This document shows, piece by piece, positions 13,072 through 58,206 of a stretch of DNA of 64,000 nt. Positions within the stretch are counted from its first letter, which is position 1; each line of letters begins with the position of its first letter. Made by a program: the position numbers and the translations under genes. Source of the stretch: an uncultured Candidatus Saccharibacteria bacterium (GTDB taxonomy: Bacteria; Patescibacteriota; Minisyncoccia; Phycocordibacterales; UBA5272); NCBI GenBank assembly GCA_964457775.1, contig CAYWEW010000005.1:5398-69397 (forward strand), read 5' to 3'. The notes under the pieces were generated by a model that did no database searches, was not told the DNA's origin, and saw only the letters and a program-made list of their open reading frames with translations.

Positions 13072-13184
13072 TTAGTATTTTTTGATTGATGTATTCAGTA
13101 TTTAATAACATGACAATTAGAGTGTTTTGTGATAGAATAAATCCTATTGTTTTGGTAGTAAAAATAAATTATGCCGTGAGTAGA

Positions 13185-13247
13185 TCGAGAAGCTTGGCTT
13201 CGAAGATGTCAAAAATTAGCAATTTTTTAACCCGGTTGGTAGAATAT
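13185..13247 (+). repeat. Conserved hairpin element upstream of tRNA (copy a)
   Basis: cgagaagcttggcttcgaagatgtcaaaaattagcaattttttaacccggttgg; second copy at 51627..51680 with compensatory base changes in the stem. Confidence 0.55.
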
Positions 13248-13286
13248 TAAAACGTACATGGTCAGCAGGTAGTAGATAGTAAATAT

Positions 13287-13362
13287 GCCGCTTTAGCTCA
13301 GTTGGTAGAGCAACGGTTTTGTAAACCGTAGGTCCACAGTTCGAATCTGTGAAGCGGCTCCA
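13287..13362 (+). tRNA. tRNA-Thr (anticodon UGU)
   Basis: Acceptor GCCGCTT/AAGCGGC, D-arm GCTCAGTTGGTAGAGC, anticodon loop ttTGTaa, T-arm GGTCCACAGTTCGAATCTGTG, CCA encoded. Confidence 0.8.
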
Positions 13363-13421
13363 ATAATAAGCGGAGCTTATTATGGTGATGCTTCAGCAAG
13401 ACAACTGCTTGTCTTGCGACA

Positions 13422-13493
13422 GATTCTAATAGGGGTCGCGAGGTTTATATTTTGAGTTTACGAGGAATAGACCTTGTGACCGAATCTGACAAG
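13422..13493 (+). repeat. tRNA-trailer repeat module (GATTCNAATA-GGGGTCGCGA...GTGACC-GAATC)
   Basis: gattctaataggggtcgcga...cttgtgaccgaatctgacaag; related copies at 33894..33956 and on the minus strand at 50095..50180. Confidence 0.5.
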
Positions 13494-13514
13494 TTTTAGC
13501 CAATACTTCAATTT

Positions 13515-17144: not shown

Positions 17145-19496
17145 ATGAAATTCTCTAAATCATGGCTACAGGATTATATTGTTGAAAAACTTCCAGAAGA
17201 TGGAGTTATTGCTGATACTTTAAATAAAAAAGCATTTGAGGTTGAAGAGGTTATTACACTTTCCAATGATACAGTTTTTGATATTAAAGTTCTTCCAAAT
17301 CGTGCGCATGATGCACTTGGTCACCATGGTATGGCTTATGAACTTTGCTCTTGTTTTGGTTTTACATTTAAAAAAGACCCTCGAAATAAAGTTTTAGAAT
17401 TTACTGACAAACATATCGCATCACCAGCCGTTGTAATTGATGATGAAAAGTCATGTACTCGTTTCTTAAGCATGAGAATTGATAATGTGACAGTGGGTGA
17501 TAGCCCAGAGTGGTTGAAGAATAGATTAGAAGCAATCGGACAACGCAGTATTAATAATATTGTTGACGCAACCAATTATGTACAATTCGCACTCAATAAA
17601 CCAATGCACGCATATGATGTAAGAAGTGTTAAAGGATCACTTCGTGCGCGCTTTGCTAAAACTGGAGAAGCACTCACAACTCTTGATGGTAAAGAATTAA
17701 CTTTGAACGAGAAGACTCTTGTAATTTCTGATGATGAAAAGGTGCTTGGTCTAGCAGGAATAAAAGGGGGTAAATTTAGTGGAATACAACCCGACACTAA
17801 AAGTATTCTTCTTGAAAGTGCTAATTTTGAACCTACACTTATTCGCAAGACATCACAAAGTTATAATATTCACACTGATGCATCAAAGCGTTTTGAAAAC
17901 GGTATAGCAAACTCACTTTCAATTGAAGGGTTGTATATGACCGCTAATTTGATAAAGGAAATTTGTAGTGATGCTAAAGCGAGTGAACCAACAGATATTT
18001 ATCCTGAAAAGGATACAGCTTACTATGTCGGTGTTTCTCTTCTTGAGATAAATGAAATTCTTGGTACTTCTTACTCGGACGACGAGATTAAAAATACTCT
18101 CAATGGCATGTCACTTCCTTTTGAAATAGTTGTTCCAGAAACATATATAGAAGAAACATACAAAACATTAGTAGGGTCAGTATACAAAAACCCTTCAAGT
18201 ATGAGACGTGATGCACCACAAGCCTTTAGTTGTTCTTCACTCATTAGTTATCTATATAAAGGTGTATGGATGCCGAGTCTTTCCGTTGATAAATATGTTT
18301 TTTCAAAAAAGATAACAAAAGATGATTTAAAATTCGGTGACCTTATTTTTACTAATAGTGGGGAAGGAAATATTAGATATGAATCAGTAGAATTTTTGCG
18401 AGGCACAAAAGTACCTGCTGGGGTAGACCATGTTGCTATGTATTGTGGCGATGGAAAAGTTATTCATGCAACGAAAGTTCACGGTGTTGTAGTTATTGAA
18501 ACTCTCGAGGACTTCTCAATTCGTCGTACTATAGTTGGGTATGGAAGAGTAGCTGACAATTTGGATGAGGAAAGATACGTAGTGCGTGTTCCGTCTGTGC
18601 GTTTAGATTTAAGAATCAAGGAAGATTTGGCGGAAGAAATTGGACGTATTATTGGATATGAGAAACTTGTACCAACTTTGCCAAAACTTAATCGTGTCGG
18701 TATTCCACATAAACGTATGTATTATGAAAATAAAATTCGAGAGATTTTAATTTCAAAAGGATTTTCGGAAGTAATAACATACACTTTTGGAAATGAGGGG
18801 GAGGTAGAGATTGTAAAAGGTTTAGCTTATGATAAAGAAAAGTTGCGCAATAATTTGGGTAAGGGTTTGCTACAATCACTTTCCCTTAATATTTACAACG
18901 GACCAGTGCTTGGTCAAAAAATTATTAAGATTTTTGAAATTGGAAACGTGTTCGGAAAAGATTTGGAGGTTAGACACTTATCGCTTGCAATCGATGATGG
19001 CGCCAAGAAGAGTAGTTTTACGGAAGAAATAGATATGATTCTTGCAGAAATAAAAAGAACATTAAATATTAAAGAAATAGAATATCAAACAGTATCTACA
19101 AAACCTTATGTGATTGAAATTGATTTTGATACACTTATTTCAAATCTACCAGAATCATCAATATATGAAGCGCCTACGTTCACGTCTCTCCCTTTGGTTA
19201 ATTACAAACCAGTCTCTGCTTATCCGTTTATTACCCGTGATATTGCTATGTGGGTACCTGATACTGTCACATGGGAAGATATCAATTCTGTTTGTGCTGA
19301 AGTATCTAATCCTCTTGTTACTCGTATTGATATTTTTGATACGTTTTCAAAAGAAATAGAAGGTGTAAAAAAGACATCATACGCCTTTCGTTTAGTATTT
19401 CAAAGTTATGAAAAAACATTAACTGATGATGAAGTGAATATAATGATGGGGGATTATTATCAGGTTTTGAAAGATAGAGGGTACGAAATTAGATAA
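17145..19496 (+). CDS. pheT: Phenylalanine--tRNA ligase beta subunit with an inserted NlpC/P60-like module in the B5 domain
   Basis: B1 and B3/4 (VLPNRAHDALGHHGMAYEL), B5 (LLEINEILGTSYSDDEIKNTLNGMSLPFE ... RYVVRVPSVRLDLRIKEDLAEEIGRIIGYE), core and C-terminal FDX-like domain. A roughly 150-aa insertion at about nt 18147-18600 carries C-S-S-L and DHVAMYCGDGKVIHA motifs. Confidence 0.9.
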   Translation: MKFSKSWLQDYIVEKLPEDGVIADTLNKKAFEVEEVITLSNDTVFDIKVLPNRAHDALGHHGMAYELCSCFGFTFKKDPRNKVLEFTDKHIASPAVVIDDEKSCTRFLSMRIDNVTVGDSPEWLKNRLEAIGQRSINNIVDATNYVQFALNKPMHAYDVRSVKGSLRARFAKTGEALTTLDGKELTLNEKTLVISDDEKVLGLAGIKGGKFSGIQPDTKSILLESANFEPTLIRKTSQSYNIHTDASKRFENGIANSLSIEGLYMTANLIKEICSDAKASEPTDIYPEKDTAYYVGVSLLEINEILGTSYSDDEIKNTLNGMSLPFEIVVPETYIEETYKTLVGSVYKNPSSMRRDAPQAFSCSSLISYLYKGVWMPSLSVDKYVFSKKITKDDLKFGDLIFTNSGEGNIRYESVEFLRGTKVPAGVDHVAMYCGDGKVIHATKVHGVVVIETLEDFSIRRTIVGYGRVADNLDEERYVVRVPSVRLDLRIKEDLAEEIGRIIGYEKLVPTLPKLNRVGIPHKRMYYENKIREILISKGFSEVITYTFGNEGEVEIVKGLAYDKEKLRNNLGKGLLQSLSLNIYNGPVLGQKIIKIFEIGNVFGKDLEVRHLSLAIDDGAKKSSFTEEIDMILAEIKRTLNIKEIEYQTVSTKPYVIEIDFDTLISNLPESSIYEAPTFTSLPLVNYKPVSAYPFITRDIAMWVPDTVTWEDINSVCAEVSNPLVTRIDIFDTFSKEIEGVKKTSYAFRLVFQSYEKTLTDDEVNIMMGDYYQVLKDRGYEIR

Positions 19497-33815: not shown

Positions 33816-33857
33816 AAAATAAAAAAACTAAAGCTTTTGCCTTAGTTTTTTATTTTA

Positions 33858-34150
33858 CGGAGAGGGAGAAAGTGACCTGCGTCACTTTCATGGGGATTCG
33901 AATAGGGGTCGCGAATCTACTTCGAGCAAAGCGAGGCAGATTTGTGACCGAATCCCTCACCCCTCCGCTTTGAAAATAAATTAACTCACTTTTTAAGTGA
34001 GTTAATTTATTTTGCGGTGAGGGAGAAAACCAACCGCTTGGTTTTCGTGGGGATTCGAATAGGCGAATCAGCAGATTCGGTTATTGGAACTAGCGAAACC
34101 CATTCTGACGAGCTTGCGAGGAGGGGTTTTGTGACCGAATCCCCATACTC
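33858..34150 (+). repeat. Two tandem degenerate tRNA-Ser-like units separated by a perfect palindrome
   Basis: Unit A 33858-33968 and unit B 34015-34150 each start cgg(a/t)gagggagaaa plus a hairpin, contain ggggattcgaatagg ... ttttgtgaccgaatccc and end with ..cccctccg or ..ccccatactc. The palindrome is 33972-34014. Confidence 0.5.
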
Positions 34151-40369: not shown

Positions 40370-40573
40370 GTGCCAAAAAAAGAATTTGATGGTGTGAGAA
40401 AATCTAGAGAAGAGATGGCAAGATTAAATCAAGATAATTCTGCGAAAAGAGTTACTGAACTTAGAAATCAAATAGCAGAGTTACGGAAAAGTTCAATGAT
40501 TGATAGGTACACTGCACTTCAGAATATTTTGAAGTCAAAGATTGCTGAATTCGAAAGAATTACAGGACAATAA
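40370..40573 (+). CDS. Small coiled-coil protein (GTG start)
   Basis: RBS AAAGGAG 7 nt before GTG. Charged, helical 67-aa product. Confidence 0.4.
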   Translation: MPKKEFDGVRKSREEMARLNQDNSAKRVTELRNQIAELRKSSMIDRYTALQNILKSKIAEFERITGQ

Positions 40574-41043
40574 GTCCCACTTCAATAATGTCTTATCCCT
40601 AAAACGCATATTAATACTTATGTTTGAACATAGGTCACAATGTGCGTTTTTTGTTTTATAAATATTTTTGTGTACAATCAACTGTCCAAAGTTCTACAAA
40701 AAGGTATACTTAATTGCATATGAATACAAAGAAAGATTCTTTTAATAAAGCTTCAGTACTAGTTGCTTTAACATTTGTATTAGGAACAATAACATATGCG
40801 TGGACTGGGGCTCCAGAAGGAACACCACCAGCAAATAACGTAGATGCACCAGTGAACGTAGGTGTTGTAACTCAACTTAAATCAGGGGCTCTTGGTATTG
40901 ATGGATTATTTAGGTCATATGGCAGTGCTATTTTTGATGGAGGTGTTAAGATTTCTACTGATTCAGGTCTAGGTAAAATTCTAACAAGCGATGCAGCAGG
41001 TAATGCTTCTTGGACATCAACTTCTTCTTTGGGGATTAGTGGA
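40565..41043 (+). repeat. Tandem duplication unit 1 (promoter plus 5' coding cassette)
   Basis: About 99% identical to 41415..41893 (period 850 bp). Identity decays over about 30 nt, then the 3' parts are unrelated. Confidence 0.85.
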
Positions 41044-41376
41044 GGAAACGGTGGAGTTTCATCATTTGTAGAAGATTCTTACTCTGATCAAACAACAACA
41101 CGTTTGATTGGTTCCACATACACAAACACATTATTAACACCAAGATTTGTTATAGTCACCGCAAATACAATTCCAGGATCTGTTGTTCGAGCAGCTATAT
41201 TTGTTTATGTGAACAATGTTCGAATACAAGTAACACAAGTTACAGATGCGAATTACAACCAAGGGTGGTTACCATCTACGAATTCTGCTTCATTTATAGT
41301 TCCTCCAGGTGCAACGTATCGAGTCGACAGGTCTGTTAGCAATGTGCGTATAGTTTCATGGTATGAATTAAATTAA
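40714..41376 (+). CDS. Secreted/surface protein, paralog B of the variable family
   Basis: Signal anchor plus the conserved module (AWTGAPEGTPPANNVDAPVNVG...GNASW), then a unique C-terminus. Confidence 0.6.
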   Translation: MHMNTKKDSFNKASVLVALTFVLGTITYAWTGAPEGTPPANNVDAPVNVGVVTQLKSGALGIDGLFRSYGSAIFDGGVKISTDSGLGKILTSDAAGNASWTSTSSLGISGGNGGVSSFVEDSYSDQTTTRLIGSTYTNTLLTPRFVIVTANTIPGSVVRAAIFVYVNNVRIQVTQVTDANYNQGWLPSTNSASFIVPPGATYRVDRSVSNVRIVSWYELN

Positions 41377-41414
41377 TATTTAAAACATTAGTAATTTTTC
41401 CTAATCAAGTTGTA

Positions 41415-41893
41415 GGACAATAATCCCCACTTCAATAATGTCTTATCCCTAAAACGCATATTAATACTTATGTTTGAACATAGGTCACAATGTGCGTTTT
41501 TTGTTTTATAAATATTTTTGTGTACAATCAACTGTCCAAAGTTCTACAAAAAGGTATACTTAATTGCATATGAATACAAAGAAAGATTCTTTTAATAAAG
41601 CTTCAGTACTAGTTGCTTTAACATTTGTATTAGGAACAATAACATATGCGTGGACTGGGGCTCCAGAAGGAACACCACCAGCAAATAACGTAGATGCACC
41701 AGTGAACGTAGGTGTTGTAACTCAACTTAAATCAGGGGCTCTTGGTATTGATGGATTATTTAGGTCATATGGCAGTGCTATTTTTGATGGAGGTGTTAAG
41801 ATTTCTACTGGTTCAGGTCTAGGTAAAATTCTAACAAGCGATGCAGCAGGTAATGCTTCTTGGACGTCCACTTCTTCACTGGGTATTAGTGGA
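41415..41893 (+). repeat. Tandem duplication unit 2
   Basis: See unit 1. Confidence 0.85.
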
Positions 41894-42343
41894 GTTGGTG
41901 ACGTCACATCAATTACGGGTGGCGCCTGTGCGGTTGGGCAAGTAGTTCAGTCAATTAGTGCAACAGGGACTGTAACTTGTGGTGTTGATGCTGGAGGGGG
42001 TACAGGGTTTTCTGGAATACTGAGACCGCTTGAGGGAAAGGAGATAACTTGTAACATAACGCAGGGTGGCGCTGTAGCTGGAAGGGGATATGGGAAAGTT
42101 GAGGGAGGTGTATTTAAAGCGAGAGTTGTATGGGCTAGTATTGCGTATAGACCATATGATTCTGGATGGAAATCTGGTAATTCTATGGGTGTACAAGCAA
42201 ATTTAGTTAGCGCAACATACGGACATGTAAATGTTGGATTAAGTGGAGCAACTTGTACAGGATACACATCTAGTGGCGGGGGTGACAATGCTTCACTTGA
42301 TCAAATCCCAGAGTCAACATCTGTTCCTTGGCCAAATTTTTAA
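41564..42343 (+). CDS. Secreted/surface protein, paralog C of the variable family
   Basis: First about 110 aa essentially identical to paralog B. The C-terminus is Gly/Cys-containing and unique. Confidence 0.6.
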   Translation: MHMNTKKDSFNKASVLVALTFVLGTITYAWTGAPEGTPPANNVDAPVNVGVVTQLKSGALGIDGLFRSYGSAIFDGGVKISTGSGLGKILTSDAAGNASWTSTSSLGISGVGDVTSITGGACAVGQVVQSISATGTVTCGVDAGGGTGFSGILRPLEGKEITCNITQGGAVAGRGYGKVEGGVFKARVVWASIAYRPYDSGWKSGNSMGVQANLVSATYGHVNVGLSGATCTGYTSSGGGDNASLDQIPESTSVPWPNF

Positions 42344-42655: not shown

Positions 42656-44443
42656 ATGCAACAGGAAATTCGTAACATCGCCATTATCGCTCACGTAGAC
42701 CATGGTAAGACAACCCTCACAGACGCACTCATGCAACAGTGTGGTGTTGGTGTTGAAGGTCAAACAATGGACTCAAATCCAATGGAAAAAGAGCGTGGAA
42801 TTACAATTACAGCGAAGAATACTTCCGTTCCATATAAAGGTGTAAAAATAAATATTCTAGATACTCCAGGTCACGCTGACTTCGGTTCTGAAGTAGAACG
42901 CGTTTTGCGTGCTATTGATTGTGTGTTACTTGTTGTTGATGCACAAGAAGGTCCAATGCCTCAAACACGTTTCGTACTTAAGAAATCCCTTGAACTTGGC
43001 ATTAAGCCAATCGTCGTTATTAACAAAATTGATAAGCCAGCAGCAGATCCAAAGAAGGTTCACGATGAAGTGTTCGAATTATTCATGGAACTTGGTGCGA
43101 ATGATGAACAACTCGACTTCACTACAGTTTATGCTATTGGACGACAGGGTGTTGCGATGAAAAACTTGGAAGACGAGAAAAAAGATTTAACTCCACTTCT
43201 TGAAGTTATTTTGGAAAAGGTACCAAAGGCAACAGGGGATATAAATAACCCATTTAAGGCGCAAGTATTCAATCTCGCATATGATAATTTCCTTGGACGT
43301 ATGGCTGTTGCTCGTGTATATGACGGAGTCGCAAAAGTTGGTGAAGAAATAATTGTGAAGAAGGCAACTGGTGAAACAAGAAAGGGGAGAATCACTAAGA
43401 TGTTCACATTTAACGGCATCGCAAGAAATGATGCTCAAACTGCCGAAGCGGGAGATATCGTTATGATTGCAGGATTCTCAGATATTTTCATTGGTGAAAC
43501 ATTTATGAAAAATGAAAGTCAAGAACCATTGCCTGCTATTCATATCGATGAACCAACAATCGCTCTTAATTTCCTTGTTAACGATTCACCATTTGCTGGT
43601 AAAGAAGGAAAGTTCGTAACTGGTCGTCAGATTCGTGATCGTCTAGAAAAGGAACTTGAAATAAATGTAGGTCTACGTGTTGATTTTGATACAGAAAAAT
43701 ATTTAGTATATGGTCGTGGAGAATTACACATCGGCGTACTTCTAGAAACAATGCGTCGCGAAGGGTATGAACTTCAGGTGTCACAACCACAAGTTATTTT
43801 CCATGAAAAAGATGGAGTGAAAGAAGAACCATACGAAGAACTTGTTATTGATGTTCCAGTAGAATCTTCCGGTGTAGTGATGGAAAAGCTTGGACGTCGT
43901 AAAGCGATGATTACCGATATGAGTGAGAAGCATGGAGTGAATCGTATTAAGGCAGAGATTCCTACTCGTGGTCTTCTTGGATATCGTGGAGAATTCGTGA
44001 TTGATACTAAAGGTCTTGGTATTTTATCTGCTCGTTATCTTAAGTTCGGTCCATACGCTGGTGAAATTACTCGTCGTTTAGTTGGCTCTATGACTTCAAT
44101 GGCAACAGGAAAGTCTCTTGCATTCTCACTTTGGAATCTTCAAGATAGAGGTGTTATTTATATTCTTCCTACAACAGAAGTTTATGAAGGTATGGTTATT
44201 GGTAATACATCAAAAGGTGAAGAAATGATGGTTAACCCAACTAAAGGAAAGCAACTTTCTAACATGCGTTCATCCGGTGCGGATGAAGCAATCGTACTTG
44301 TTCCTGCATGGGAAATTAGTATTGAACGCGGACTTGAAATCATGAATGCGGATGAGTATCTAGAGGTTACACCTAAGTCAGTGCGTCTACGAAAGCAGTT
44401 GTTAACTGAGAGTGAGAGAGCGAGGTCAGGTAGAAAGTCATAA
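42656..44443 (+). CDS. typA: Translational GTPase TypA/BipA
   Basis: IRNIAIIAHVDHGKTTL, DTPGHADF, NKIDK; EF-G-like domains; length 595 aa. Confidence 0.9.
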   Translation: MQQEIRNIAIIAHVDHGKTTLTDALMQQCGVGVEGQTMDSNPMEKERGITITAKNTSVPYKGVKINILDTPGHADFGSEVERVLRAIDCVLLVVDAQEGPMPQTRFVLKKSLELGIKPIVVINKIDKPAADPKKVHDEVFELFMELGANDEQLDFTTVYAIGRQGVAMKNLEDEKKDLTPLLEVILEKVPKATGDINNPFKAQVFNLAYDNFLGRMAVARVYDGVAKVGEEIIVKKATGETRKGRITKMFTFNGIARNDAQTAEAGDIVMIAGFSDIFIGETFMKNESQEPLPAIHIDEPTIALNFLVNDSPFAGKEGKFVTGRQIRDRLEKELEINVGLRVDFDTEKYLVYGRGELHIGVLLETMRREGYELQVSQPQVIFHEKDGVKEEPYEELVIDVPVESSGVVMEKLGRRKAMITDMSEKHGVNRIKAEIPTRGLLGYRGEFVIDTKGLGILSARYLKFGPYAGEITRRLVGSMTSMATGKSLAFSLWNLQDRGVIYILPTTEVYEGMVIGNTSKGEEMMVNPTKGKQLSNMRSSGADEAIVLVPAWEISIERGLEIMNADEYLEVTPKSVRLRKQLLTESERARSGRKS

Positions 44444-44581
44444 ATTATCCATTTACGTTGTTCGAGCAGTTTGACTGCGAAGATGTCCGAAACTACCAAG
44501 TGTAGGACATGAATCGATTAACTGGAGCAATTTCTGACTTTCGGGCTCATACATACAGTTACATACGAATACAATTCGATT

Positions 44582-45580: not shown

Positions 45581-45624
45581 GAATTAAAAGAGCGACACCT
45601 TTCGGTGTCGCTCTTTTATCTTTT

Positions 45625-45960
45625 GTTCTATCTATAAGCCGAATTCTGTCCATGTGGTTACCCACATTGTGTAATCATGTATCTGGGCGATATTTTACAA
45701 TACCGCTCTAGCGACACTCTCATATTGCTATGAGCACGGTCTTGCACACACGTAAGGATTTAGCCGTTTCAATTTTATCTTTCGATAAACATATTCCCGA
45801 AGGAACCCTAGTCTTTCGACATTGGCGTCACTGCTCGCACCTCTATGATTGCTCACGACGGGTGTTACCCGCTACGATCACTAATTTAAAAGTAATGTGT
45901 TCGGACTTTCCTCTCTCGGTGGTAGTATTTCAACCACAAAGAGCGATTACCCAGTAGAAC
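45625..45960 (-). ncRNA. rnpB: RNase P RNA (bacterial type A-like, reduced)
   Basis: Minus strand reads GAGGAAAGTCCGAACAC (P4), GGGTAACACCCG, GGTGCGAGCAGTGACGCC and 3' ACAGAATTCGGCTTATAG (E. coli-like ACAGAACCCGGCTTATCG). P1 is GTTCTAC/ATAGAAC. A terminator hairpin 45587-45620 lies downstream. Confidence 0.75.
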
Positions 45961-46053
45961 AAAAAAATAATACAACATATTTTACAAAAAAGCAAGTATA
46001 GATACAATTCCACGTGCTTTTATCTGCATTTTTTGTTAGTATGGAGGGATATT

Positions 46054-50094: not shown

Positions 50095-50180
50095 GTCGGT
50101 AAGAATTGGCCACGAAACTACTACACTTCGTTCGAAGTAGTTTCGCGACCCCGTTATTCGATTCCCACATAGAAGCCAAG
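50095..50180 (-). repeat. Palindromic repeat module (GGGAATCGAATAAC-GGGGTCGCGAAACTACTTCGAACGAAG...)
   Basis: Reverse complement matches the tRNA-trailer module (ggggattcgaataggggtcgcgaatctacttcgagcaaag). Contains a roughly 36-nt imperfect palindrome. Confidence 0.5.
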
Positions 50181-50333
50181 CAGTTGGCTTTTTCTTGGGT
50201 ATAACAAAAAAAGCTTTGCATATTTTTGTTGTGCACCCTCATGGTCTCGGAATTTTAGTAATTAGGCTCTGTAATGGTTTTTTGAAAGAAATTGGATAGT
50301 TAGATCTAACCCTCTCGGTCGGCTCATTAATTA

Positions 50334-51002
50334 TTATTTAATAAACTTAAAACTAGAAATTACTCTATTCAGAGTAGGGTCATTCGTTACACTAGTATCT
50401 TTGGGAGGAACTAATGATATTAGATACTCAACATTATTTTTTATTGTGCAATATTCCGTAAAACGAATACTAGAATTTGGTAAATCTTGAATTACATCTT
50501 GTTCTGTAAAATTAATACCATTAATAGATGTTTTGGTAAAAGATTTTCCACCCGCCTTAACACGAGAACAGTCCAGATTTTCGCCAGACATTATATTTAT
50601 CACAAATGAACCCTGAGAGTTTTCCTTTGAGTTAATGGGTTGAAATCTTATCGCATTATCATTTGGTCCGTACATATGTTCAGGTAATTTTGTTCCATCA
50701 ACATAATCTATCTGAAATCCATATTGAGGACTTGCATATGTTTTCCATTTTACATCTTGTGATTCAGTACTCTCAGTTATCACTGAATTTATTTGGCTAT
50801 TTTTTGAAGTGGTCAGTGTTGCTTGAGAATTTTGTACTAACGAAACATTATTAGTAACAGCTTGCTGAGTTACGATGGGTGATGTTTTTTTAAACCAGTG
50901 CCATGTTAATGGATTCCACCACGAAGCAAAAACTTGAGTTGTTAATCCAGTGGTAAGAATAAAAACAAAAGAGATTATTTTAATTTTTTTCATATACTCC
51001 AA
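50334..51002 (-). CDS. Secreted hypothetical protein
   Basis: Signal peptide MKKIKIISFVFILTTGLTTQVFA. Confidence 0.5.
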   Translation of the reverse strand: MEYMKKIKIISFVFILTTGLTTQVFASWWNPLTWHWFKKTSPIVTQQAVTNNVSLVQNSQATLTTSKNSQINSVITESTESQDVKWKTYASPQYGFQIDYVDGTKLPEHMYGPNDNAIRFQPINSKENSQGSFVINIMSGENLDCSRVKAGGKSFTKTSINGINFTEQDVIQDLPNSSIRFTEYCTIKNNVEYLISLVPPKDTSVTNDPTLNRVISSFKFIK

Positions 51003-51074
51003 TGATACCTTACTAACTGGTATTAAGAAAGTGATTTATGAGATTTAGGCCTCACGGTCTGTCTCACATGGTTG

Positions 51075-51146
51075 TGCCCTCGGCGGGAATCGAACCTACA
51101 ATAACTCCTTAGGACGGAGCAGTTATATCCATTTAACTACGAGGGC
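51075..51146 (-). tRNA. tRNA-Arg (anticodon CCU)
   Basis: Minus strand GCCCTCG ... anticodon loop gtCCTaa ... AGGTTCGATTCC ... CGAGGGCA. One A-C mismatch in the T-stem. Confidence 0.75.
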
Positions 51147-51541: not shown

Positions 51542-51612
51542 TTGTTGCATCTTTCGAAGTATTTGTTTTTATGATAGAATCTTAAGGACAGCTATTAGTT
51601 TACAGTTGTTAA

Positions 51613-51632
51613 CATGCTTGGTTAGCTCGAGA
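51613..51632 (+). repeat. Duplicated 5' fragment of tRNA-Phe (acceptor plus D-arm)
   Basis: atgcttggttagctcgag vs the tRNA-Phe 5' end atgcttggatagctcag. Confidence 0.55.
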
Positions 51633-51680
51633 AGCTTGGCTTCGAGGATGTCAAAAGTTAGTAAACTTTTGACCCGGTTG
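51627..51680 (+). repeat. Conserved hairpin element upstream of tRNA (copy b)
   Basis: cgagaagcttggcttcgaggatgtcaaaagttagtaaacttttgacccggttg. Confidence 0.55.
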
Positions 51681-51760
51681 TGAATCAGCAGATTCATGGC
51701 TTGGCCAAAAATAGATTGTTAAAACGTGAATATATAATGTCGGTGGTATAATTAAAATAT

Positions 51761-51833
51761 GCTTGGATAGCTCAGTTGGTAGAGCGCTTCCCTGAAGAGG
51801 AATAGGTCCCCAGTTCGAGCCTGGGTCCAAGCA
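51761..51833 (+). tRNA. tRNA-Phe (anticodon GAA), no encoded CCA
   Basis: GCTTGGATAGCTCAGTTGGTAGAGC ... loop ctGAAga ... CCCAGTTCGAGCCTGGG TCCAAGC A. Extended -10 TGGTATAAT ends 9 nt upstream. Confidence 0.85.
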
Positions 51834-51837
51834 CAAA

Positions 51838-51885
51838 ATACAAAAAGCGATGTCACATGATATCGCTTTTTGTATTTTGTGCTTG
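51838..51885. terminator. Perfect palindrome after tRNA-Phe
   Basis: caaaatacaaaaagcgatgtcacatgatatcgctttttgtattttg. Confidence 0.55.
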
Positions 51886-52061
51886 GACAGCAAGACAGAT
51901 TACTGTCTTGCGGCCGGCTCGAACGAAAAACCGGTCCACGAATTTATTTCAAAAAATAGGGTTCAGTATTTTTTGAAATAAATTTGTCGGTTTTTCTCGG
52001 GGTCGAGGATAGGAGATTTTGTTTGAGTCGTTAGACGAAAAAGAAAATCCCTAGCGGTGAC

Positions 52062-52085
52062 CGAGCCTGGGTCCAAGCATTTTAA
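52062..52085 (+). repeat. Duplicated 3' fragment of tRNA-Phe (T-loop 3' half plus acceptor)
   Basis: ccgagcctgggtccaagca vs the tRNA 3' end ttcgagcctgggtccaagca. Confidence 0.6.
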
Positions 52086-56944: not shown

Positions 56945-57481
56945 ATGCTTACAAAACAGTCAAAGATTTTAAAATCAGGTTCGAAGAAAAATATCGAAAT
57001 TATTACCAAAAAAATTACGAAGAAAAACGTAAAAATGGAAACGCATGCAAAACCATTACCAGACCATCATTTTAAAGTGGTGAAAGTAAAGCGCGGTGTT
57101 GCTGGACTCGGTCTTTTCGCAGGAGAGAATATCAAGAAAGGGGAATTGATTATAGAATATATTGGGAATATTTTAAATAAAGAAGAAGCAGACAAAAAAA
57201 CAACCAGCCAATATCTTTTCGAAGTGACTCGTAATAAAACAATTGACGGAACACCTAGATGGAATGTTGCACGTTATTGTAATCATGCTTGTGAGGAAGC
57301 GGCAAATTCCGAAAGTGAGATTAAGAAAGGGCGTGTGTTCATTAAAGCTATTAAGAATATAAAAGAAGGGGAAGAAATTTGTTATGACTACGGAGAAGAA
57401 TTCGTGAAGGAGCATATTGGTCATCATGGATGCAGATGTGCCGCAAAAAATCATAGTTACGGAGCATTATCTAGTAAGTAG
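56945..57481 (+). CDS. SET-domain protein (lysine methyltransferase-like)
   Basis: GxG region VKRGVAGLGLFAGENIKKGELIIEYIG, conserved Tyr (QYLFEV), NH.C motif (RYCNHACEEAAN), EL..DY motif (EEICYDYG), and a post-SET Cys cluster (HHGCRCA). Confidence 0.8.
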   Translation: MLTKQSKILKSGSKKNIEIITKKITKKNVKMETHAKPLPDHHFKVVKVKRGVAGLGLFAGENIKKGELIIEYIGNILNKEEADKKTTSQYLFEVTRNKTIDGTPRWNVARYCNHACEEAANSESEIKKGRVFIKAIKNIKEGEEICYDYGEEFVKEHIGHHGCRCAAKNHSYGALSSK

Positions 57482-57823: not shown

Positions 57824-57931
57824 ATGGCAGCAAAAAAGAAAGCAGTAAAGAAAGTAGCAAAGAAGGCAACAAAGAAAGTTGCAAAGAAGGCTGCAAAGAA
57901 GACTGCAAAGAAGTCAGCAAAGCGCGCATAG
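57824..57931 (+). CDS. 35-aa Lys/Ala-repeat histone H1-like basic peptide
   Basis: MAAKKKAVKKVAKKATKKVAKKAAKKTAKKSAKRA. Own extended -10 about 13 nt upstream (near-leaderless) and own terminator hairpin (57955-57985) plus T-tract. Not in the ORF track (under 60 aa). Confidence 0.55.
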   Translation: MAAKKKAVKKVAKKATKKVAKKAAKKTAKKSAKRA

Positions 57932-57984: not shown

Positions 57985-58135
57985 TCTGACCAGAAACTAC
58001 TTCATCTACTTCGTTAGAGAATATTTTTTCTCCATGCGACGTCGAATTAGCAGATTCGGGTCTTGGACCAAAATAGATCTCTTAGTCGAAAAAATATTCT
58101 CTACCTCGTATCTAAAGCAGTTTCTGGCCAGTAAA
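57985..58135. repeat. Nested inverted-repeat element
   Basis: Outer IR ctgaccagaaactacttc / aagcagtttctggccag, inner IR agagaatattttttc / gaaaaaatattctct. Core gaattagcagattcgggtc is related to gaatcagcagattc(g/a) at 34066 and 51682. gaaactacttcatctacttcgtt is related to the 50095-50180 module. Confidence 0.5.
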
Positions 58136-58206
58136 TCATATAGAGTATTTTATGATTACAAAAAACAAAAGAGAGTTACCTAAGGCAACTCTCTTTTCAG
58201 ATGAAT

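Follow-up and report, generated by a model that had tools for sequence, protein, structure and literature searches.

The window analysed here is a 64,000-nucleotide (nt) stretch of contig CAYWEW010000005.1 (positions 5,398 to 69,397 of the forward strand, assembly GCA_964457775.1) from an uncultured Candidatus Saccharibacteria bacterium. Among its four tRNA genes are an intact tRNA-Thr(TGT) at 13287-13362 (+) and an intact tRNA-Phe(GAA) at 51761-51834 (+), both called by ARAGORN and matched by the Rfam tRNA model (74 bits for tRNA-Thr). Each is preceded by a copy of a small element made of two hairpins (hp1 and hp2), here called the module. An initial annotation of this DNA had described a hairpin-forming sequence shared by the two upstream regions; it is indeed present, at 13181-13233 and 51623-51675, and its 28-nt core GAGAAGCTTGGCTTCGARGATGTCAAAA occurs exactly twice in the window against an expectation of 0.00 from 100 shuffles. 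The sequence TTAAAACGT, said to follow both copies, was found 3' of each. The module ends 55 nt before the start of tRNA-Thr and 87 nt before that of tRNA-Phe. A third copy, identified by repeat search (family D4) and scoring 68.3 bits with the covariance model R1 described below, lies at 44458-44510 (+) with no tRNA nearby, in the 3' flank of the typA/bipA gene (42656-44443; Pfam BipA). This copy is more diverged, and its hp1 stem has GCAGT/ACTGC in place of GAAGC/GCTTC, a compensatory change. A possible divergent variant at 2810-2866 (+; R1 19.5 bits, E=0.0019) carries the purine-rich GAGCGAAGAGCGAGGAAG in place of hp1 and lies in the 3' flank of the open reading frame (ORF) at 1273-2790; because its score falls within the range of decoy loci, it is treated as a candidate only. 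Variants of the same type were also seen at L038 (1652-1706) and in unit 2 of L269, related loci from other contigs being designated here by L numbers. With copies at two of the four window tRNA genes and at sites resembling 3' untranslated regions (44458 and the candidate at 2810), the module is not a general upstream signal of tRNA genes.

The description as a plain upstream hairpin was correct as to the hairpins and overlooked the sequences that flank them. Immediately 5' of the module lies a copy of nt 1-13 of the downstream tRNA, comprising the acceptor strand, nt 8-9 and the 5' strand of the D-stem (..TAGCTC), and 3' of hp2 the tRNA sequence resumes with the D-loop (AGTTGG..), so that the module is seated exactly between nt 13 and 14 of a truncated tRNA copy that runs from nt 1 to about nt 23. 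In 16 loci the order is constant: the nt 1-13 copy, the module, a copy of the D-loop of the local tRNA, a spacer and the intact tRNA gene. In most of these loci the copy and the gene start 113-117 nt apart, which corresponds to a unit of ~115 nt. The nt 1-13 copy is identical to the gene at 13/13 positions in six loci and at 12/13 in two, the rest being more diverged; overall, these nucleotides are repeated at 11-13/13 identity in 12 of the 16 loci, and at L038 the repeat is exact over 26 nt. The left flank reads ..GCTC in 22 of 24 copies of the module. Around the module itself at most 1 nt (C) is duplicated, and around the whole unit it is the tRNA 5' region that is duplicated; because the unit ends in a fresh leader and nt 1-13 copy, the downstream tRNA gene stays intact. 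Agreement between the D-loop copy after hp2 and the local gene can be read at L133 (GACGGTAGA, gene GACGGTAGAGC) and, with the same motif in copy and gene, at L128 (ATATGGT; gene ATATGGTAGAGC), L121 (AGCTGGTAGA; gene AGCTGGTAGAGC), L132 (AGTCGG; gene AGTCGGTAGAGC) and L137 (CTGGTCGA; gene CTGGTCGAAGG). The spacer that follows nt 23 is conserved across genomes and across different tRNAs (..TTCAAGCGTGCACAAAGTG..GTAGGTGAAAAT..).

At tRNA-Thr, the nt 1-13 copy (13173-13186, +) is degenerate, reading GCCGTGAGTAGATC against GCCGCTTTAGCTC in the gene (~8/13 identity), and the same position in other loci holds copies of the downstream tRNA that are identical at 11-13/13. The two-hairpin module (13187-13231, +) scores 69.3 bits with R1 over 13181-13233 and has the support of family covariation and RNAalifold. 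Its hp1 stem pairs 13189-13193 with 13197-13201 around a UUG loop, and the linker CGAAGAT leads into hp2 (13208-13231), which has an AGCA loop and 8/10 pairs intact. A D-loop-like remainder follows at 13232-13245 (+), CCGGTTGGTAGAAT compared with TCAGTTGGTAGAGC at tRNA nt 13-25, and reads as an extended -10 box TGGTAGAAT. The spacer or leader (13246-13286, +), which contains TTAAAACGT and ends ..AAATAT before the tRNA, is homologous to the spacers of other genomes. At tRNA-Phe, the nt 1-13 copy (51616-51628, +) is GCTTGGTTAGCTC, 12/13 identical, and the module (51629-51673, +; R1 74.6 bits over 51623-51675; family covariation) has hp1 at 51631-51635/51639-51643 and an hp2 at 51650-51673 with 10/10 pairs and an AGTA loop. 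The remainder of this unit (51674-51760, +) consists of a D-loop-like start CCGGTTG, a nested 31-nt module, TAGATTGTTAAAACGT and the proximal -10 box TGGTATAAT (51744-51752). The nested module (51681-51711), which sits in the D-loop-like part, comprises an AGCA-loop hairpin GAATC/GATTC, a TGGC-TTG-GCCA hairpin and AAAATAGAT; it also occurs at L136, in unit 1 of L269 and at window positions 58040-58085, inside a separate long inverted repeat (~57990-58140). AGCA-loop hairpins are enriched on the plus strand of the window, with seven observed against 1.9 expected. In sequence, the Thr and Phe copies of the window are alike, and the copies of L038 are unlike one another.

Conserved structure and predicted transcription

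Among the 120 matches listed from a scan of 185,579 reference genomes with a loose pattern, 117 were chance hits in GC-rich genomes; the three true copies are all in Patescibacteria metagenome-assembled genomes, labelled 'Patescibacteria group' (L014), 'Paceibacterota' (L038) and 'Nomurabacteria' (L039). A stricter pattern applied to metagenomes gave 24 loci, of which 21 are AT-rich contigs with true copies. In all, about 20 copies were found beyond the window, in Patescibacteria-type genome and metagenome contigs. IMG/VR viral contigs held no true copy, their three loose matches being coding sequence without hairpins, and literature searches found no described equivalent of the module. No Rfam 15 family overlaps 13173-13286, 51616-51760 or 44458-44510, whether the gathering score is applied or E is allowed to reach 5, and the only gathering-score matches in the window are RNase P and the four tRNAs. 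A covariance model (R1), a check that the initial annotation had proposed, scored the true copies at 64-81 bits, the third window copy included, and 100 decoy loci matching the primary-sequence pattern at no more than 35 bits.

The 24 distinct sequences of the family aligned readily. Across the family hp1 is a 5-bp stem with a UUG loop, set on putative tandem G.A pairs, hp2 is a 10-bp stem whose loop reads AGCA, AGTA or AACA, and the core of ~50 nt includes a GAAGAU linker. Cells of the alignment assigned to pairs were paired in 89% of cases, compared with 76% in shuffles and 24-48% when the partners were slid; double-sided changes affected 10 of 15 pairs (54 cells), a level reached by none of 500 shuffles, and the covariation score of 0.408 compares with 0.174 in shuffles and 0.02-0.11 in slid registers. 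RNAalifold, run unguided, recovered hp1 and the apical part of hp2. The pair that closes the hp2 loop alternates between T-A and C-G, and in the class-B form of hp2 two A-U pairs are replaced by G.A and A.G mismatches while the pair between them covaries (T-A, A-T, G-C). The compensatory A-T to G-C change first noticed between the Thr and Phe copies is real (alignment columns 36/45); the two copies are thin evidence, since the Thr hp2 also has two mismatches (C.A and T.T). The 24-sequence alignment and RNAalifold bear out the earlier view that the hairpins are under structural constraint, not neutral repeat DNA. The module is a conserved structured RNA or single-stranded DNA element. Two additional structural proposals were discarded: a closing helix P0 (AGCU before hp1 with AGYU after hp2) is inconsistent in copies away from tRNAs, and in a hammerhead-like reading of CTCGAG..CGAAG the core nucleotides misfit and no Rfam match was obtained.

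A normal-looking promoter lies 13-37 nt upstream of the tRNA-fragment copy. At tRNA-Thr, the consensus scan placed a promoter-like site P1 at 13110-13138 (+; ATGACA-17-TAGAAT with TG), 35 nt before the fragment copy, which is close to the spacing of 36 nt from the -10 box to tRNA position +1 at L272, a locus without a unit. The probable original promoter of tRNA-Phe, also P1, is TGATAGAAT at 51572-51580 (+); it was uncalled by the stricter consensus scan, and the block TTTTTATGATAGRAT is conserved with L272 and L269. About half of the units have nT in place of GC in the D-loop remainder, giving an extended -10 box TGGTAGAnT, and the Thr copy was called by the scan at 13216-13245 (TTAGCA-18-TAGAAT with TG). 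From its sequence, the unit appears to carry its own promoter, a D-loop-derived extended -10 box, leaving the original promoter and the first 13 nt stranded upstream. The hp2 loop of the Thr copy could be taken as the -35 box of that promoter (TTAGCA, 18 nt from TAGAAT); a -35 box cannot explain the conservation, however, because the loop-closing pair covaries between T-A and C-G and the class-B loops (CCAGCA) are not -35-like. Nor is the module an intrinsic terminator: the terminator scan of the Thr and Phe regions gave no terminator-like site, and the T-run of hp2 lies within the stem. Because no terminator follows the module, a transcript should continue into the tRNA as a long leader, and the module should accordingly be transcribed, from the upstream promoter and on the tRNA-sense strand, as part of a long tRNA 5' leader. 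The tRNA-sense strand is favoured by the G.U pairs and the purine-purine G.A pairs.

The same evidence bears on the idea that the unit is an independent gene for a trans-acting small RNA, with a promoter, a tRNA-like 5' end and hairpins, or else a D-loop intron spliced from the tRNA precursor. The unit does have its own upstream promoter, its 5' part has the exact sequence of the tRNA acceptor strand and might base-pair with tRNA 3' ends, and at L129 the module lies in an otherwise full-length tRNA-Thr-like sequence. The absence of a terminator after the module speaks against a separate gene, and because in the 16 loci the upstream tRNA copy goes no further than about nt 23, nothing is left to splice into a tRNA. 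No bulge-helix-bulge of the archaeal type, group I feature or Rfam family match was found, and an intron of either kind was rejected. The L129 sequence has mismatched acceptor strands and a broken T-stem, received no ARAGORN call and is probably a deletion product. Both forms of this proposal strike us as highly improbable.

A more serious alternative is that the module is a host-selected, cis-acting leader RNA which binds a protein, such as a kink-turn binder of the L7Ae/YbxF type or an RNase, and tunes the processing, stability or amount of the tRNA precursor, the partial tRNA copy being part of the leader. In its favour are the strong structural covariation, an orientation that always matches that of the tRNA, the conserved upstream promoter, the presence of a unit at the tRNA-Phe locus in four diverged lineages, and the class-B hp2, which retains a G.A / N-N' / A.G motif with a covarying middle pair. 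The non-helical nucleotides of the linker and hp1 flanks, CTCGAG..CGAAGATGT, are identical in 24/24 sequences. Within them, C21-G22A23A24-G25A26 invariantly faces G7A8-G9, a kink-turn-like arrangement at the level of sequence pattern; when the RNAalifold structure is extended, the strands C-GAA-GA and GA-G beside the C=G-closed hp1 stem may be read as similar to a Kt-7-type kink-turn. The putative non-canonical stem is weak, and its columns are invariant and so contribute no covariation. Were this reading true, the module would be a new kind of structured leader confined to this lineage, probably with a kink-turn that binds protein. We regard it as possible but on balance doubtful, given the distribution of units described in the next section.

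Gain, loss and multiplication of units at tRNA genes

The tRNA-Phe gene belongs to an orthologous locus, tRNA-Arg(CCT) / 107-aa ORF / tRNA-Phe, that is syntenic in several contigs, and the ORF serves as an anchor for comparison. In L272, where the ORF has 58% amino acid identity to that of the window, the promoter block TTTTTATGATAGRAT is followed directly by tRNA-Phe and there is no unit. The window has one unit at this locus and L269 (83% identity) has two, while in L138, L139 and L123 (37-46% identity) a unit is present with differing hp2 classes. In L270 and L271 (63% identity) the tRNA-Phe gene is inverted relative to the ORF (2922-2995 and 1720-1793, respectively), and the tRNA-Arg of L269 is opposite in orientation to that of the window, so that small inversions appear around repeat-flanked tRNA genes. 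The nt 1-13 copy of the window lies 35 nt from the promoter and the real gene of L272 lies 36 nt from the same promoter; because these distances match, the copy in the window is the 5' end of the original gene. Relative to the window, the extra unit of L269 is placed exactly at the boundary of nt 13 and 14 and ends in a new leader and nt 1-13 copy. The distal L269 unit scores 50.7 bits, compared with 64-81 for intact copies, and is decaying, with eight substitutions, among them one loop change and several near the hp2 base. In the proximal unit, (GAAGAGC)n replaces hp1 and the score is 40.8 bits. A tandem (GGGACTA)x5 lies between the conserved promoter and the first unit (L269 2050-2085). The hp2 of the window is nearly identical to that of L139, and those of L123 and L138 differ at about half of the positions; because hp2 classes differ among distant tRNA-Phe relatives, simple vertical descent does not fit.

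Other loci have further arrangements. L143 has three units, the older of which hold nested insertions, and in L038 the upstream copy is the weaker one (41 bits). Identical units in tandem, reaching the contig ends, are found in L130 and L142. In L134 and L141 two modules stand back to back at the same junction, those of L134 belonging to different subfamilies. At the tRNA-Glu of L137, whose D-stem reads GTCT instead of GCTC, the upstream duplicate of nt 1-23 has no module, and different hairpins with AGCA loops come after it, as would be expected if the module requires the junction between ..GCTC and AG.. as its site. The copies away from tRNAs in L125 and L135 are still preceded by TAGCTC-like sequence.

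The unit therefore behaves like something that comes and goes at tRNA genes and not like an indispensable tRNA signal. For the leader RNA explanation the difficulties are its absence from the orthologous L272 tRNA-Phe and from half of the window tRNAs, the range of zero to three units per locus with decay of the distal ones, the replacement of hp1 by a simple repeat, and the copies outside any tRNA context. An essential role is hard to reconcile with loci whose orthologues lack the unit and with distal units that decay, and a modulatory role is compatible with both. The reading we tentatively prefer, while holding it at somewhat less than even probability, is that of a small non-autonomous insertion or repeat cassette which enters at the tRNA D-arm and regenerates the gene, its hairpins serving propagation and its transcription in the leader being a by-product. 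New units would be added beside the active gene, either through recombination of an intermediate the size of one unit or through unequal exchange at the D-arm site, with a trans-acting enzyme encoded elsewhere. The hairpins would be needed for propagation as folded single-stranded DNA or RNA, which would explain subfamilies that differ by compensatory changes. The stranded promoter would transcribe the module into a long 5' leader to be removed by RNase P, and any effect on tRNA expression would be secondary.

Several points weigh against the cassette reading. Neither an enzyme (among the window ORFs), an intermediate nor an autonomous parent element was found: Pfam searches of the 57 window ORFs of at least 110 aa gave housekeeping or unknown proteins and no integrase, recombinase, transposase, reverse transcriptase, HUH or Nop protein, a result that also speaks for the non-autonomous nature of the cassette. 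The upstream flank is duplicated over lengths ranging between about 0 and about 55 nt, and because of this variation a fixed staggered cut does not fit. The module and the duplication may even be two separate events, since the D-loop copy is specific to the local tRNA. The two hairpins are dissimilar, unlike the paired end-hairpins of IS200/IS605-type elements. The invariant linker and hp1 flanks, with their kink-turn-like pattern, would be easier to explain by protein-RNA recognition and hence by a host function, and the units at tRNA-Phe in four lineages, whose neighbouring protein has 37-46% identity, could reflect long retention under selection. Finally, the metagenome search pattern fixed four of the five hp1 pairs and the first three nt of hp2, and because most of hp1 was fixed in this way the covariation support comes mainly from hp2 and two hp1 pairs.

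Elements at tRNA 3' ends and other features of the window

A second family of elements, 110-200 nt in length, lies after the terminators of tRNA-Thr, tRNA-Phe and tRNA-Ser (two after tRNA-Ser) and once on the minus strand: 13384-13500 (+), 33856-33968 (+), 34013-34145 (+), 51878-52079 (+) and ~50100-50215 (-), with others in L038, L123-L143 and L269. These tRNA-like elements open with a duplicate of the 5' acceptor strand, which is antisense to the tRNA 3' end, and a hairpin of 9 bp whose CUGC loop is invariant. Next come an antisense T-stem with half a T-loop, a bulge AAUAGG and a long stem that has GGUCGCG/UGUGACC, with two G.U pairs, at its base, and the last part is a direct repeat of the tRNA from the T-loop to the end, which for tRNA-Phe is identical at 18/18 positions (52061-52078). 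The elements share a three-way-junction fold with z-scores of -6.6 to -9.4, and across 12 distinct sequences 106/108 positions of the CUGC hairpin are paired, with several pair types at 8/9 positions; stem covariation is strong. They also vary at orthologous loci, L123 having none, the window one and L138 two. Viral contigs held no true copy of the core, the matches to CGAATAGGGGTCGCG, at least 120 in number, being a GC-rich phage gene. These elements suggest that, in these organisms, small structured inserts accumulate at either end of tRNA genes. A kissing interaction between the AGCA loop of hp2 and the CUGC loop was considered, and only 3-4 nt are complementary. An outer tRNA assembled from the upstream 5' fragment and the downstream 3' copy was rejected, since the acceptor strands match only for recent duplicates and L144 gives no support.

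On the minus strand, at 50230-51146, a 222-aa ORF (50334-51002; weak PsbP-like match) appears to have tRNA-Arg(CCT) on one side and, on the other, a degenerate copy of the 3' end of that tRNA (..ATTCC..GAGGGTGCACAAC, ~50235-50262), followed by a terminator and a 3'-type element; the arrangement resembles an insertion, the size of a gene, at a comparable site. Such features raise the question of whether the units are scars of classical integrase-mediated integration, in which a larger element left tRNA copies as attL and attR, the remaining 100 nt or so are what deletion spared and the hairpins are arm sites for a recombinase or accessory protein. Direct repeats of a tRNA-gene end around an insert are the hallmark of tRNA-gene integration (PMC9897764), small elements at the tRNA 3' ends of the same genomes are bordered by exact repeats, 18-23 nt long, of the T-loop-to-end segment, and the apparent position of the 222-aa ORF is in keeping with this origin. 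We nevertheless find this origin improbable. No integrase occurs among the 57 window ORFs; the same ~50-nt module and spacer are found at many tRNAs, unlike the target of one site-specific integrase; the unit has a constant length of ~115 nt, which random deletion remnants would not have; binding sites in double-stranded DNA would conserve sequence and not covary as hairpins; and the module splits the repeat itself, between nt 13 and 14.

Several further features of tRNA 3' regions were observed. A perfect palindrome with 27-bp arms at 51825-51888 takes in the tRNA-Phe 3' acceptor strand, an A-tract, the terminator hairpin, a U-tract and the downstream acceptor-strand copy, and terminator palindromes that reach into the tRNA 3' end also occur in L143, L138, L133, L272 and L270. 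A trailer hairpin AAUAAGCG(A/G)AGC.. with the GCGAAGC mini-hairpin motif lies at 13363-13383 of the window and, in L131 and L139, after tRNA-Thr(GGT) and tRNA-Arg; it stands directly 3' of several tRNAs and replaces the long terminator. Gene content of the window is otherwise ordinary, with housekeeping genes and a class-A RNase P RNA (45619-45962, -; 107 bits against a gathering score of 100), which is divergent, as expected for the lineage. The ORF for the PheRS beta subunit (17145-19493, +) has an NlpC/P60 match at residues 358-457, between B3/4 and B5, an unusual domain insertion. Repeats of 225-300 nt with 84-99% identity (240-464, 40798-41022 and 41648-41872; 40564-40863 and 41414-41713) are probably paralogous gene segments, two lying 850 nt apart in or near the ORFs 40714-41376 and 41564-42343 (no Pfam match) and one near the window start. 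A SET-domain protein is encoded at 56945-57478 (+), and downstream of it 57838-57924 is a lysine/alanine-rich coding repeat with a 12-nt period (family D3).

Implications and comparison with known systems

If the cassette reading is true, the tRNA genes of reduced episymbiotic bacteria are sites of repeated small insertions that spare the gene, a natural 'safe-harbour' insertion with gene regeneration and promoter replacement, and an unidentified recombination or copying activity would be indicated in the Candidate Phyla Radiation. Carried further, this would mean an undescribed class of miniature self-regenerating cassettes in Patescibacteria, with a D-loop/5' family and a T-loop/3' family; a trans-acting enzyme would recognise both by way of hairpin folds or of RNA paired to the tRNA gene, and new units would be added beside the active gene in an integron-like manner. 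In this extended form we consider the proposal unlikely. Whatever their origin, the units and the 3' elements yield tRNA-like fragments and repeats that break metagenome assemblies and may be mis-annotated as tRNA genes or pseudogenes, and the covariance model R1 can flag such units.

By analogy, the unit works most like a cross between the partial tRNA-gene duplications of integrative elements and the hairpin-bearing repeats of the REP/MITE type, and it fails the defining tests of both. In insertions into tRNA genes, the intact gene and a truncated direct repeat of one of its ends bracket the insert (Williams 2002, as cited in PMC9897764). The unit is alike in this bracketing and in that the insert regenerates the gene, and the 3'-side elements repeat the T-loop-to-end segment as classical integrations do. 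It differs in that the insert is ~100 nt of non-coding sequence instead of 9-23 kb or more, with no integrase nearby, in that one insert family is found at many tRNA species with units in tandem, and in that the repeat is of the tRNA 5' end (nt 1-13/23). To our knowledge, repeats of the tRNA 5' end are unusual at integration sites. With repetitive extragenic palindromes (REP), the mosaic elements built from them (BIME) and hairpin-bearing miniature inverted-repeat transposable elements (MITEs), such as the IS200/IS605-derived PATEs, the module has in common that it is a short, non-coding, strand-specific intergenic repeat with compensatory hairpins, apparently inserted beside a fixed short sequence (here following ..GCTC), with subfamilies within and between genomes, nested and tandem insertions and decayed copies. 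Unlike them it has two dissimilar hairpins, no Y1/HUH transposase, OrfB or RAYT was seen in the window, and insertion is coupled to a tRNA 5' duplication and a promoter-bearing spacer.

Integron cassettes and their attC sites are similar in that the newest unit lies beside a fixed site while older units are displaced and decay, in that very small cassettes exist, and in that the candidate recombination site is a structured hairpin whose shape is conserved more than its sequence. Here, in contrast, the window has no IntI, there is no R''/L''-L'/R' architecture or good GTTRRRY core, the host site lies within a tRNA gene and the linker sequence is highly conserved. Arrays of the TIGR-Tas or bridge-RNA kind were rejected as a model, there being no Nop or IS110 protein in the window and the units being homologous and not variable spacers. 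Structured tRNA 5' leaders and dicistronic genes, of which the plant tRNA-snoRNA genes are an example (cited in PMC12045711), resemble the unit in that one transcript joins a structured RNA to a tRNA, from which tRNA-processing enzymes would free it; the unit differs in being inserted into a gene fragment, in being dispensable at orthologous loci and in having no recognisable guide function. Compared with kink-turns of the Kt-7 type, which are bound by the L7Ae family, the module has, in sequence, a C-GAA-GA strand facing GA-G beside a C=G-closed Watson-Crick stem, all invariant, and in place of their non-canonical stem it would have only U.C, G.U and similar pairs formed with the tRNA-derived GCUC.

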